Below, piece after piece: positions 16,485 through 20,109 of a DNA stretch of 64,000 nt (position 1 is the stretch's first letter; every line of letters starts with the position of its first letter). The stretch covers positions 285,845 through 349,844 of the forward strand of contig CAVXTW010000015.1 in assembly GCA_963764695.1 (NCBI GenBank), read 5' to 3'. Source of the stretch: an uncultured delta proteobacterium. Lineage in GTDB: Bacteria > Myxococcota_A > Polyangia > Haliangiales > Haliangiaceae. The notes below the pieces were generated by a model. It ran no database searches and had not been told where the DNA came from. It saw nothing but the letters and a program-made list of their open reading frames with translations. The position numbers and the translations under genes are program-made.

Positions 16485-19400
16485 GTGGCCGATCGGGGGA
16501 ACAGCCGGACGGTGGCCACGAAGGCGGGCGACGCTTCGGCCGGCAGCGCCCGGCCACCGCCGTCTCACGCAAAGCCCGAGGCCGCCGACCGCGCAGCCCT
16601 TCAGCGAGCCCTGGGCAACCGGGCCATGGGTCAGCTCGTTGAGACGGCCGCGCTGCCGGGCATCATCGATCCCGACGGTCCGCGCGCACTCAGGACCGCA
16701 GCACTGCTGAGGCGCCTCGGCGCCGACCTGGGCCTCCACGCCGGCGACGTCGAGATCCGGGCCGACGCCGAGGCGGCTCGACGAAAGCACAGCTGCGCCT
16801 GCGGCGGTTCCGCGAGTCTCGGCGGCTCGTGCGAGAGCTGTCAGGCTGCACGCTCCTCAGGCAAGCCGCTCCAGGCCAAGCTGAACATCAACGCCCCCGG
16901 CGATCAGTTCGAGCAAGAAGCGGACCGCGTGGCCGAGCAGGTCCTGCGCATGCCGGACCGAGTGGCTGGCGAAGCGAAGCCGTCCTCCCCTGCGCCAGAG
17001 CTGGTGCAGCGACGGGTCGGCTCCGGCGGCGCAGGCATCGCACAGGCGCCCCCGGTCGTTGACGAGGTGCTGTCGTCACCGGGCCAGCCCCTCGATCCTG
17101 CCACACGCGCGTTCTTCGAACCTCGCTTCGGGCACGACTTCGGGCGCGTGCGTATCCACGCCGATGCTGAGGCCGCAAGATCCGCACAAGCGATCAACGC
17201 CCTGGCGTACACCGTGGGATCGGACATCGTGTTCGGGAACCCACGCAGCTCGCCCGATTCGAGCGACGGACGCCATCTTCTGGCCCACGAGCTCAGCCAT
17301 GTCGTGCAGCAGGCTGATTGGGCAGGAGCGGCCCCACCTCCACTCCAGAGGCAAGCCGGGCCGGAGTCACAAGATTCATCGGCACAAACCGTGGACGACG
17401 ACCTTCTGAGTCAGGCGTCCGACTTTCTTTCTAGCTTTGAAGAGTTCAGAGATCTCGCATCCTCCTACGAGACATCAGACTCATCAGTCGAGTCTCGCCT
17501 CAGGGTAGCTCTCGCCCTCTTCGATGAGCGATGGCGCTCCATGGACTATCACGATGCGTTTGGCGCCAGCGCCTTTTATGGCCTCTTCTCCATGGCGCAG
17601 GAAGCTCTGGCGCTCTTTGAGTTGCGGGTCTCCGAACTGGAGAGCCTCTCTGACACCGCTGACCTTTCTGACATCCGGAACGGGCTCGACCGCCTGGGAC
17701 GCCAGCTGTCCGCGCTGCAGGGAGCCGGTTCGATGCGCGGCCAGGCCCAGCGAACCGAGCTGGCCAGGGAAGCGCGAGCGGCCGAGGCGCTGGCCCTCGA
17801 ACACACGCCGGAGGGGCGGCAGAGCACCGCCCTGACACACCTTCGGACCTACGTCCAGGATCATCCGCCGAACACGGGCAAGGCGGGCGTGAGCGTCTAT
17901 GCGAACCAGCTAGGGCGCTACCTGGTGCACGAACAGAACCTGAGCGGATCCGAGATCCAGGCGGTCCTCGAAACGATAAAAGCCGACGACCCTGACCTCT
18001 TCGATCGTGCCCTGTATCAGGGCGAGCTTCTCGTCTACCTGCTCGAGGAGGGCGTGACCGGGTTGGATGTCGAAAGCCTCCTGTCCGACAGTGGAAGCGA
18101 ATCCGAAGGTGCGCCAGCCCACGTCAGTGGCGCCGGATTCTATGCAGGATTTGATATCTGGTGGCTCGACCAAAGTCAGAAGGATCCTCTCGATCTTCCG
18201 ACTCTGAGATTGCCGAGGCCGGACGAGATAGACGACGTGTTGAAGGGCTTCTATTGGGGGCTCGGAGCGGGCTTCCTCGGGACGTTTGCGGATGCAGCCA
18301 AAGACATCTTGTCAGCGCTGAATCCGACGACGTGGCTGGCCATGTACAAGCTGGTGAGCGAGCAGCTCCCCGACGAGAGGTGGCAGTTCGAGCTGGGACG
18401 GACGACAGCGCTTGCTTTCCACGCCTATCTCAAGGACGTCGCCGACGACAGCCTCAAGGCGGCCATCACGAGATTCGGTCGCGTGATCGGCGCCGCACTC
18501 GCCGAGGTTGCGATGACCTTTCTTGGCGCCAAGTTCGTTGCGTTGGCCGCCAAGGCCGCCCGGGCCACGAAGTGGGGCGCGCCACTGTTCAAATTCGCCG
18601 ACCGCGTGGGCGATGCCCTGCCATGGCGCGACCCACGGGTCGTTGAGAACGACGTCGCGCCGGATTCCGTTCCCGACGAGACACCTGTCAAGAAGGCCGG
18701 TGAATCTTCGAGCACCACGACCTCGTCGGAGGTACCGAGCAGTTTCGAGCTGAGCAACGAACTGGTGACGCCCTCCCAGTCCCTCCAGGAAGCGGCCTAC
18801 ATCGACGCTCATCCGGAGCTGATCGACGTGACGTCGCCGCAGAAACGGGCAAAGGTGGGCGACCACGAGATTGTCGAAATGCGCGACGGCGGGTGCTCAC
18901 GAAATTCCCCGACGCGCAAGTCGGTCCCCTGCCCGGTCTCGTTCGAGGCGCCGCCCGGCAGCGTCACCGTGAAGGCCGATGAGCTCCTTTCGGAGGATGC
19001 GCGTGGTCTCCTGAAGGACCGCTCCGTCGACCCCACTCCCTCAACTCAGGCAGAACTTGACGCCTCGCTGGAACGGACACGCAGTAGCGATGCGGTCGCA
19101 CCAGCAAAGACCACGGATCAGAAGCGGCTCGAACGCGAGGCACTATCACGGGGCCGTATCGCCGACCTGGAGCGCCAGATCGAGAATCTCACGAGGTTGA
19201 GGAACGAATCGGTTAACCAACTAGCTCGATTCAGGGAGGTGCGGGCTGAGATTCTGCGCGCACAACGAGAGGGACGCGCGTATGAAATGCCTGCCGACGT
19301 TCTGGCCATGGACATCGAAACGCCAGCTGAGGTCAATGCGCACATCCTTGGCCTCGGTAGCGAGATCAAGCTTCATAGCAAGTCGATGGCTGCGCCCCAA

Positions 19401-19859
19401 CAGGAACTAAGAATCGAGATCCGCGCCAGTTCGGGAATGACCACAGAACTGGTCAAGCTTCTTCGTTCAAAGACGCCCAGTGACGCTGCCCTGTCGCTTG
19501 TCAAATCCAGATCAGGAGGACGGGACGAGGCCTTTGGCAGCGGCCTTCTGAGAGCGGCCTCTGCCGACCATATTGTTCCGTTTACGGAGATAATAGAAAT
19601 GGACGACTTCGGGGCCTTGGAACTTCACGAGCAAATTGAAGTGCTCAACAATGCTGACAACCTTCAGTATATGAGCGACCTGGCCAACAGCAGTAAGGGC
19701 AACAAGAGATGGCAGGAGTGGGATTCGTCTGCTTACGAGACCGCGAACACTCGTAAAGACCTGAGGAAGGAGATGATCAGGAGGGAGGGCGAGCTGCGTC
19801 AGGCCATCCAGGACGATATCAGCGCCAGGGTTGCCAGGCGCCGTGGCCAAGTAAATTAG
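16485..19859 (+). CDS. eCIS cargo/toxin: N-terminal DUF4157 (HExxH metallopeptidase-like) domain, long variable region, C-terminal HNH-like nuclease motif
   Basis: Canonical DUF4157 block (LQRALGNRA...PLDPATRAFFEPRFGHDFGRVRIHADAEAARSAQAINALAYTVGSDIVFG...HLLAHELSHVVQQ). C-terminus reads ADHIVPF...NLQYMSDLANSSKGNK, an HNH beta-beta-alpha-Me-like pattern. GC is ~55% from ~17340 onward. Confidence 0.85.
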   Translation: MADRGNSRTVATKAGDASAGSARPPPSHAKPEAADRAALQRALGNRAMGQLVETAALPGIIDPDGPRALRTAALLRRLGADLGLHAGDVEIRADAEAARRKHSCACGGSASLGGSCESCQAARSSGKPLQAKLNINAPGDQFEQEADRVAEQVLRMPDRVAGEAKPSSPAPELVQRRVGSGGAGIAQAPPVVDEVLSSPGQPLDPATRAFFEPRFGHDFGRVRIHADAEAARSAQAINALAYTVGSDIVFGNPRSSPDSSDGRHLLAHELSHVVQQADWAGAAPPPLQRQAGPESQDSSAQTVDDDLLSQASDFLSSFEEFRDLASSYETSDSSVESRLRVALALFDERWRSMDYHDAFGASAFYGLFSMAQEALALFELRVSELESLSDTADLSDIRNGLDRLGRQLSALQGAGSMRGQAQRTELAREARAAEALALEHTPEGRQSTALTHLRTYVQDHPPNTGKAGVSVYANQLGRYLVHEQNLSGSEIQAVLETIKADDPDLFDRALYQGELLVYLLEEGVTGLDVESLLSDSGSESEGAPAHVSGAGFYAGFDIWWLDQSQKDPLDLPTLRLPRPDEIDDVLKGFYWGLGAGFLGTFADAAKDILSALNPTTWLAMYKLVSEQLPDERWQFELGRTTALAFHAYLKDVADDSLKAAITRFGRVIGAALAEVAMTFLGAKFVALAAKAARATKWGAPLFKFADRVGDALPWRDPRVVENDVAPDSVPDETPVKKAGESSSTTTSSEVPSSFELSNELVTPSQSLQEAAYIDAHPELIDVTSPQKRAKVGDHEIVEMRDGGCSRNSPTRKSVPCPVSFEAPPGSVTVKADELLSEDARGLLKDRSVDPTPSTQAELDASLERTRSSDAVAPAKTTDQKRLEREALSRGRIADLERQIENLTRLRNESVNQLARFREVRAEILRAQREGRAYEMPADVLAMDIETPAEVNAHILGLGSEIKLHSKSMAAPQQELRIEIRASSGMTTELVKLLRSKTPSDAALSLVKSRSGGRDEAFGSGLLRAASADHIVPFTEIIEMDDFGALELHEQIEVLNNADNLQYMSDLANSSKGNKRWQEWDSSAYETANTRKDLRKEMIRREGELRQAIQDDISARVARRRGQVN

Positions 19860-20109
19860 ATCTCGCGAAACCCTCTGTGACCGACTTCGCAGGATCTCCA
19901 ACCTCTTCAAGGCGGCGTTGCTCTGATCCATCCCAACCGTGTTGGTCCGGAAACTAGAGACTGGCTCGGCTCGTCTGCTTCGCATGAGGGGTCAGCAGGA
20001 AACGGACGATCCTCACCGCGCTGCGGTGCCGAGCCGCGCCTCGAACGCCGGCCACGACACTACACCGAAAGCGTGTTCTTCTTGAGGTTGCGCACCTCGC
20101 CACAGCCGG

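Follow-up and report, generated by a model that had tools for sequence, protein, structure and literature searches.

A low-GC, probably exchangeable tail in the cargo gene of a contractile injection system from the Haliangiaceae

The cargo gene and its operon

We analysed a 64,000-nt stretch of DNA from an uncultured delta proteobacterium of the Haliangiaceae (contig CAVXTW010000015.1 of assembly GCA_963764695.1, positions 285,845 to 349,844 of the forward strand; hereafter the window), and in it a gene for a 1124-aa protein (16485-19859, plus strand) within which GC content falls sharply. This open reading frame (ORF) matches the DUF4157 family (PF13699 eCIS_core, E = 2.3e-32), its product is identical to P0272, and it starts 16 nt 3' of a CIS13-like gene (15663-16469, plus strand, 268 aa, GC content at third codon positions, or GC3, 0.91). 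The same-strand genes on its 5' side encode a sheath C-terminal domain, CIS_tube, a Phage_base_V spike, Baseplate_J, Tail_P2_I/NHL and the CIS13-like protein. The strain contig L002 places an AAA+ ATPase, Pvc16 and the remainder of the sheath gene directly before the start of the window. This gene content identifies the operon as that of an extracellular contractile injection system (eCIS), with the ORF, its terminal gene, encoding the cargo (effector). The CIS13-like gene is the last stretch homologous in all related operons, and we used it as an anchor to locate the operons of relatives and retrieve their contexts.

From its N-terminus, the cargo consists of seven parts, all on the plus strand. 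An operon-specific leader (aa 1-100, 16485-16784), common only to the cargo of related operons, is followed by a widespread N-module (16785-17087) and by the zincin-like DUF4157 domain (aa 202-278, 17088-17318), with an intact HExxH motif (HELSH, aa 268-272). The remainder, or tail, comprises a middle region (aa 279-729, 17319-18671), a junction module (aa 730-830, 18672-18974), a charged helical linker with a coiled-coil look by eye (aa 831-974, 18975-19406) and, at the tip, an HNH-like (His-Me finger) nuclease domain (aa 975-1124, 19407-19856).

A trough in GC content

GC content was 0.609 in 17340-20109, against 0.707 outside this stretch and 0.703 in the whole window. Among all 2770-bp segments of the window (mean 0.703, sd 0.024) this one was the minimum, about -3.9 sd. 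Maximum-likelihood segmentation of raw GC over 12000-26000 placed change points at 17112 and 20016, with GC of 0.716, 0.610 and 0.705 before, between and after them; the ~95 per cent support intervals were 17050-17376 for the 5' change point and 19944-20241 for the 3' one. The trough has an uneven floor, with a GC of 0.57-0.65 at 17100-17700. GC recovers in part to 0.65-0.68 at 17550-18000, falls to ~0.59-0.61 at 17850-18450, stands at ~0.65 at 18450-19050 and drops to 0.54-0.57 at ~19050-19950, and values of ~55 per cent are confined to this final third, or ~0.8 kb. The nuclease domain (GC 0.549) is its deepest part. Low GC then runs ~155 nt beyond the stop codon into the spacer (19860-20015, GC 0.577, against 0.61-0.64 in two other spacers of the window), and is back to 0.691 before a convergent TPR/MalT-like gene (20110-22143, minus strand, GC 0.708, GC3 0.82) of native-like composition, with which the anomalous block has ended. 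We found no ORF, terminator, repeat or Rfam RNA family in 19860-20015, and looking for these and for promoters around the spacer was likewise negative.

An earlier note on this DNA, made from its letters, had described a drop from ~70 to ~55 per cent GC that began just after DUF4157 and continued through the stop codon into intergenic DNA. The drop is genuine: a sliding-window calculation found the shift, the stretch is the lowest of its size, and both 17340 and 20109 fall inside the change-point support intervals. Its continuation past the stop codon was also borne out. The depth was overstated, with a mean of ~61 per cent and the lower values reached only near the end, and the onset, although within the support interval, is best placed at the start of DUF4157 and not after it.

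Independent assemblies reproduced the sequence (L002 at 99.57 per cent over 6484-23065, and L025, from the same strain, at 99.8 per cent over 15265-19027). Since the two carry it across the boundaries, a chimeric assembly is ruled out.

Codon usage in the cargo gene

The deficit is largely one of codon choice. GC3 was 0.733 in the cargo gene and 0.817-0.968 in the 29 other confidently coding ORFs of the window, with 0.87-0.91 in the three operon genes directly upstream of the cargo. The lowest values among these 29 reference genes belong to the three genes just 3' of the cargo (20110-24049: TPR/MalT-like, alpha/beta hydrolase and ECF-type sigma factor; GC3 0.817-0.825). To decompose the deficit, we back-translated the protein using the codon usage of the window itself. 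Over codons 210-1124 this predicted a GC of 0.679, and 0.612 was observed; of the total deficit of 0.094, amino-acid composition accounts for 0.027 (29 per cent) and synonymous codon choice for 0.067 (71 per cent). For the nuclease tip the deficit of 0.157 divides into 0.055 for amino-acid composition and 0.102 for codon choice.

GC3 also varies among the homology-defined modules (chi-square p = 8e-4), with 0.82 in the leader, 0.81 in the N-module, 0.73 in DUF4157, 0.70 and 0.76 in the middle region, 0.82 in the junction module, 0.64 in the linker and 0.65 in the nuclease. The best single split of the gene by GC3 falls at codon 850 (nt ~19035; likelihood-ratio statistic 17.1, permutation p = 0.002). 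These values are suggestive of an internal mosaic, for which we do not claim sharp borders.

Comparison with related operons

The closest distinct relative operon is L023, whose upstream gene is at least 90 per cent identical to that of the window. The two operons are collinear at 88.8 per cent nucleotide identity to 16764 and at 81.5 per cent over 16869-17230, with no similarity beyond. In segments of 60 nt, identity is 0.80-0.95 up to ~17150 and reaches background by ~17330. The two cargo proteins are 80 per cent identical over aa 125-225 and 45 per cent identical over aa 226-278, the latter being the generic DUF4157 level and no better than the match of either to unrelated DUF4157 domains. 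By these alignments the breakpoint between the two operons is inside DUF4157, right after ...FEPRFGHDFGRVRIH ('FGRVRIH'; aa ~225, nt ~17160), and matches the position of the GC change point. Half of the presumed adapter domain, the part with HExxH, thus moves with the tail. Beyond the breakpoint, the L023 cargo has a tail of ~870 residues that is unrelated to that of the window and has a distant likeness to the tail of P0034. Its GC3 is 0.75, compared with 0.89-0.91 in its operon.

More distant operons share less of the cargo. L004 (72 per cent) shares only aa 1-113, with DNA homology stopping at 16777, and L024 (80 per cent) shares only aa 1-110. In L003, L005 and L006 (63-67 per cent), homology stops at 16433-16450, before the cargo start. 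The locus is therefore polymorphic by replacement, with a different tail at the same site in L023 and other cargo genes in L004, L005 and L003. Because the shared part shrinks to ~100-113 residues or to nothing, the truly operon-specific piece is the leader and not DUF4157. From the comparison with L004 we had taken the whole gene, DUF4157 included, as the unit of exchange; the closer relative L023 refined this view.

Directly after the L023 cargo (L023 6957-7136) is a ~45-codon relic (75.6 per cent nucleotide identity) of the C-terminal tail of a Ser/Thr kinase, whose counterpart in the window is 45062-45240, in the gene at 43596-45236. Either gene order 3' of the cargo differs by ~25 kb between these close relatives or a paralogue is involved.

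The leader and the N-module

Among the relatives, the leader occurs only in the cargo of L023, L004 (60 per cent, aa 1-113) and L024 (48 per cent). The N-module that follows opens with a four-Cys motif (C104, C106, C116 and C119; C-x-C-x9-C-x2-C), continues with PLQAKLNINAPGDQFEQEADRVAEQVLR and ends in a linker. A metagenome scan with aa 1-225 returned at least 450 relatives. Of the 80 loci that were kept, nearly all match from aa ~97-104 on (five begin inside the leader, at aa 17-84). The alignment of P0002, from another eCIS operon (L001), begins at aa 101. It follows that the leader is lineage-specific and that the widespread cargo N-module starts with the Cys motif. The motif itself (16773-16856, aa ~97-124) is present in P0002 and in many metagenomic relatives and is absent, as a 28-codon indel, from the L023 gene, whose identity is otherwise 80-89 per cent.

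The end of the leader (aa ~70-102, LGADLGLHAGDVEIRADAEAARR) looks like a first half of some older DUF4157, surviving as a relic of a previous replacement. The part of the L004 and L024 proteins that aligns to aa ~70-113 of the window is the first half of their own eCIS_core (aa 70-142 and 86-157, respectively), and the leader's GDVEIRADAEAARR echoes the same protein's own GRVRIHADAEAARS. A direct eCIS_core profile score on the half-domain was weak (2.6 bits, reached by 9 of 500 shuffles), so the case for a relic is made by transitive homology. By analogy with a system discussed below, the leader may be the loading signal, acting AAA+-dependently to bring the cargo into the tube lumen.

Modules of the tail

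Searches of Pfam (E up to 10), NCBIfam and PDB sequences with residues 279-1124 gave nothing usable. In a word-indexed search, aa 285-1124 retrieved nothing but the protein itself and P0002, which aligns over aa 101-729 at 40 per cent and no further. An exhaustive HMMER search with aa 730-1124 returned 382 relatives, and we drew the module map from the best 150 of these. Dozens of this best 150 have the N-module (aa ~100-280) in common with the cargo. The full architecture recurs in only two other proteins among those compared, P0004 and P0025; P0004, from a Blastocatellia metagenome-assembled genome (MAG; L020), matches the cargo end to end (aa 174-1122, 32 per cent) and carries the same nuclease tip.

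Helices alone are predicted for the middle region, one of them hydrophobic (aa 667-685), and it has no family match. It was found only in P0002 (40 per cent), P0025 (43 per cent), P0004 (32 per cent) and L032 (37 per cent). An AlphaFold2 model from four sequences was also helical, at a mean predicted local distance difference test (pLDDT) score of 54.8, too poor for a fold search. One could speculate that the region serves in translocation or as a linker.

The junction module has the signature HPEL.EG..PNR.A.IG-DHEIVE..GG-C.R.S...VP-CP, including Cys804 and Cys816, and no Pfam match. Twenty of the relatives carry it, ten of them ahead of this nuclease tip and ten ahead of other tips. In its distribution the module resembles the 'pre-toxin' domains at the junctions of other polymorphic toxins.

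The nuclease tip

The tip domain was found in 139 relatives of 105-3452 aa, always at the very C-terminal end (a median of 0 residues follow it). Among the 44 carriers of at least 600 aa, 31 have DUF4157 and 13 do not. D1028, H1029 and N1059 are invariant in 140 aligned tips and N1068 is present in 99 per cent; the window has all four. R994, D1014, S1070, K1071, G1072 and W1079 are conserved in 81-96 per cent (S1070-K1071-G1072 in 81-94 per cent).

The window's own tip had no Pfam match even at E up to 10 and nothing in NCBIfam, and PADLOC gave a weak HEC-05 match (E 2.5e-4). Twelve of 35 tip relatives did reach PF07510 GmrSD_C (best E 3.9e-05), and the sole match of the tip profile among PDB sequences was the HNH motif of Cas9, in register (E = 0.12). 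An AlphaFold2 model from 35 sequences (pLDDT 88.8, predicted TM-score 0.83) arranges a strand, a helical insertion, a strand and a helix around the conserved residues, as in a beta-beta-alpha-metal fold. The top Foldseek matches of this model were all HNH proteins (Cas9, Cap5, BrxU/GmrSD and McrA), at weak scores (E at least 0.039, TM ~0.4). As modelled, the tip has an HNH-superfamily fold with the catalytic motif and stands outside any curated family. It would be predicted to act as a nuclease that degrades nucleic acid in the injected cell.

Directly 3' of P0004, at L020 11188-11817, is an Imm33-like (PF24719) gene, a candidate for the cognate immunity protein of P0004. A tblastn search for its homologue across the window found none, and we found no orphan tip or immunity cassettes in 19860-24000.

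Tail GC and host GC

An initial small survey showed no general dip in DUF4157 cargo, and we dropped the notion of a universal dip; whether one appears depends on host GC. We then regressed segment GC on the GC of the host flank across all retrieved loci in which the cargo gene was complete and the flank was 2 kb or longer (n = 37, or 35 without near-duplicates), a small sample with crude ORF calls. The slope was 0.90 for the control, random 600-nt pieces of flank; 0.74 for the cargo N-module (95 per cent confidence interval (CI) 0.56-0.94); 0.37 for the tail (95 per cent CI 0.04-0.65); and 0.27 for the tip, taken as the last 200 codons (95 per cent CI -0.09 to 0.61). Leaving out the window and L023 did not change this result. 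Tip GC averages 0.57 ± 0.05 whatever the host, and the tip dips by 0.09 to 0.15 below its host in five of the seven hosts above 0.64 GC and differs by 0 to +0.09 in hosts below 0.57. The slopes favour tails that circulate horizontally as a pool, in preference to a fixed AT offset, and a host-independent tail GC explains why the dip is conspicuous in a host of 70 per cent GC.

The two hosts of full-architecture homologues, L020 and L021, repeat the codon-level pattern. In both, the cargo gene is lowest in GC3 and the tip lowest of all (tip GC3 0.45-0.49 against 0.70-0.74 in one, and 0.39-0.44 against 0.63 in the other).

Explanations of the low-GC block

We read the low-GC block as the exchangeable part of a polymorphic eCIS cargo gene, whose tail was drawn from a circulating pool, and put the probability of this at roughly 70 per cent. 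The operon lineage would retain the leader, and everything from mid-DUF4157 to ~155 nt past the stop codon would be replaced now and then, by recombination in the conserved 5' half of DUF4157 or in the N-module with incoming cargo genes. These would come from a horizontally circulating pool with a tip GC of ~0.57 that is largely host-independent. Sitting unameliorated in a host of ~70 per cent GC, such a tail would produce the 2.9-kb GC trough, deepest over the nuclease tip.

The earlier note had proposed a recent swap of a toxin-specific module directly behind a DUF4157 adapter that stayed native. Comparison with orthologous eCIS loci supports exchange as such: sequence 3' of mid-DUF4157 varies (the L023 tail is unrelated), and still less is shared with L004, L024, L003, L005 and L006. 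The details need amending, in that the breakpoint is inside DUF4157 and the native piece is the leader. The toxin part proper is the last ~300-400 residues, behind a 450-residue middle shared with P0002, P0004, P0025 and L032. 'Recent' finds no support, with no donor in public data and with an L023 tail that may itself be the derived one.

Several observations weigh against an exchanged tail. Public data hold no donor or near-identical tail, and the best relatives of the tail are 30-43 per cent identical; a genome scan with the full protein gave N-module matches only (13 MAGs or genomes), and the tail appeared in no species-representative genome. Repeats around the block are short and at chance level, with no integrase or terminator. 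An adjacent immunity gene is absent, the cargo being followed by a 250-nt spacer without a credible small ORF and then by the convergent TPR gene. The 3' flank is conserved in no relative, which leaves the 3' junction of any swap undefined. Within the gene, a conservative GC3 segmentation returned no internal change point, and the GC3 mosaic fits the module borders poorly, the junction module being at 0.82. In three hosts (GC 0.56-0.71) the tip is 0.19-0.25 GC3 units under its host, which also fits a persistent offset. After L023, the window N-module is closest to P0002 (60 per cent) and P0025 (50 per cent), both of which share its middle region. The polarity of the swap is thus ambiguous: the second half of the window's DUF4157 resembles those of P0025, P0004, P0005 and P0007 (55-58 per cent), and that of L023 resembles nothing compared (at most 51 per cent), so the window may keep the older arrangement and L023 the new one. 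If the window tail predates the split from L023, its persistent low GC3 needs slow amelioration or repeated replacement by cargo of the same family.

Some of these points lend themselves to the opposite account, in which the tail is an old resident and its low GC and GC3 are maintained and not a trace of transfer. Weak codon selection on a rarely expressed gene, a lack of GC-biased gene conversion for want of a homologous partner, or AT-richness that limits toxin expression could each keep it so. The offset in the three hosts is what this account expects, the nearness of the N-module to proteins sharing the middle region suggests a co-inherited unit, the tail is identical in the strain variants L002 and L025, and signatures of mobility were not found around the block. 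We nevertheless think it unlikely. Across the 35 loci tip GC is nearly independent of the host, and in low-GC hosts the difference is nil or positive, unlike a constant negative offset; at this site the closest relative operon carries another tail; and low GC continues into non-coding DNA. The last point also tells against a dip that is a mere by-product of amino-acid composition (Ser/Asp/Glu/Lys/Asn-rich linkers and a nuclease fold). Composition does contribute, as the first two codon positions have a GC of 0.72 in the leader and of 0.50 in the nuclease domain, the tail is rich in E, K, N, S and I and poor in G, P and V, and the tip would have a GC of 0.65 with native codons compared with 0.706 for native genes. 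The decomposition largely refutes it as the cause, with codon choice making up the remainder of the deficit, and the GC3 of 0.64-0.76 is outside the range of all 29 other genes; as a full account it is very improbable. An assembly artefact, that is, a chimeric join with reads of a lower-GC organism, is scarcely credible. The source contig is metagenome-derived, and several single-base indels between the window and L002 suggest error-prone long reads, yet the same sequence crosses the change points in three independent assemblies from different samples and pipelines (the window, L002 and L025), one unbroken ORF of 1124 codons spans the junction, and P0004 matches its domain continuity from end to end.

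Within the preferred reading of an exchangeable tail, we raise one further idea, tentatively and with the odds against it. The conserved 5' half of DUF4157, together with the N-module, may be a dedicated recombination handle. Crossovers there would swap the HExxH half and the tail, sometimes leaving half-domain scars such as aa ~70-102, and the cross-phylum pool of tails, at ~0.57 GC, would equilibrate with no host. Were this true, the ubiquity of DUF4157 in eCIS cargo would have a partly evolutionary cause, its use as a homology patch on which cassettes are exchanged, and not a purely biochemical one.

Relation to known systems

Among the known eCIS-associated toxins (EATs) are proteins with DUF4157 near the N-terminus, then a long linker that is unannotated and a C-terminal toxin domain, encoded at the operon's 3' end (Geller et al. 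2021, PMC8213781; Danov et al. 2024, PMC11297309). No second annotated domain was found in 983 of 1130 predicted DUF4157 toxins (PMC11297309), and many EATs lack immunity genes (PMC8213781). The cargo described here follows this plan, with PF13699 near the N-terminus, a long linker, a predicted toxin domain at the C-terminus, a place at the 3' end of the eCIS and no adjacent immunity gene; like most predicted DUF4157 toxins, it has a single annotated domain. Its middle region, junction module and HNH-like tip match no Pfam, NCBIfam or PDB sequence family. In architecture the cargo conforms to the usual polymorphic toxin of the DUF4157 eCIS type, and its HNH-like tip is so far unclassified. The closest known kin of that tip are HNH and His-Me finger nucleases, especially GmrSD_C (PF07510, formerly DUF1524) and the Cas9-type HNH; toxin versions of these nucleases include AHH, GH-E and, from type VI secretion systems (T6SS), the effector TseN.

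For AlgoCIS it is reported that a disordered N-terminal domain acts as the system-specific loading signal, that loading can proceed without DUF4157 and that the C-terminal domain varies (preprint 10.64898/2026.05.27.728243), a result that agrees with the leader being the piece conserved here. Like Cgo1 and Cgo2 of this system (Algoriphagus machipongonensis; PMC8894135), the cargo combines a system-specific leader, DUF4157 and a variable C-terminal domain, and its 1124 aa are near the size of Cgo2 (1228 aa). As in AlgoCIS, likeness of the leader is confined to the cargos of related systems (L023, L004 and L024). The resemblance is one of plan, with no claim of sequence similarity to Cgo1 or Cgo2, and the leader here appears to end in a relic DUF4157 half.

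Recombination among polymorphic toxins has been reviewed (PMC4436062). The cargo shares with the Rhs, CdiA and MafB toxins a conserved N-terminal part with alternative toxin tips, exchange at a conserved patch and a tip that occurs across unrelated carriers. The tips of rhs genes are compositionally distinct from the core, being AT-richer. Those toxins are delivered by type V secretion systems (T5SS) or T6SS, and the cargo would be delivered by a free phage-tail-like particle. Also unlike them, the cargo locus has neither downstream orphan tip/immunity cassettes nor an immunity gene, and its junction is inside a zincin-like domain, compared with the PxxxxDPxGL or VENN motif of other polymorphic toxins.

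The locus offers a coordinate-level example of payload exchange in an eCIS, in which a ~100-residue leader stays with the machine and everything from mid-DUF4157 onward probably moves. This bears on the re-loading of engineered eCIS particles and on the purpose of DUF4157. It also adds to a largely unannotated effector repertoire an HNH-like tip family (about 380 relatives, no Pfam model) and a small junction module. Host-independent tail GC is a simple and testable signature by which effector cassettes could be sought in high-GC genomes. Nothing here alters what is established about polymorphic toxins; the evolutionary mode is familiar, and the system is not of a new type.

Other observations in the window

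For the TPR/MalT-like gene downstream of the cargo, one can only speculate about a regulatory role. Its 3' end differs between the window and L002 (677 aa versus 598 aa). The cargo gene differs from the strain variants by five single-nucleotide polymorphisms (SNPs), two of them non-synonymous (H264D and N911D), and its SNP density against L002 is 1.5 per kb, with an average of ~4 per kb. SNP hot spots of 11-12 per kb lie at 9484-10484 and 12484-13484, in fibre-like and NHL-repeat operon genes. Single- or two-base indels between the window and L002 occur at 9159, 11131-11132, 11601, 13516, 20489 and 23027, and the ORFs in 8525-11787 are fragmented and overlapping. The indels and broken ORFs suggest that one assembly or both contain frameshifts or long-read errors. 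A 1194-aa ORF upstream (4941-8525) has a very strong GC3 change point at codon 192 (likelihood-ratio statistic 147), so its start was called too early; within this early part, in another frame, is a separate 136-aa ORF (5119-5529) with a GC3 of 0.94.

Contig L002 (ENA ERZ25039530 contig_53200, 29,753 bp) closes on itself, with its position 1 at ~3521 of the window and its end at ~3516. After the hydrolase stop codon (window 23066; junction 23067) it runs into the sigma-54 activator, AAA+, Pvc16 and sheath genes from upstream of the window. In the sample of L002 the whole eCIS locus, including the cargo, the TPR gene and the hydrolase, thus appears to be a 29.75-kb circle or tandem repeat unit, in which we saw no integrase or replication gene. 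In the window, the eCIS locus instead continues into other chromosomal genes.

Farther downstream, an 844-aa protein (30749-33283, minus strand) has Major Vault Protein shoulder and Vault_3 repeat domains. Its GC3 of 0.96 is in the highest class in the window, and its gene adjoins one for an RtcR-type sigma-54 activator (34633-36234, plus strand).

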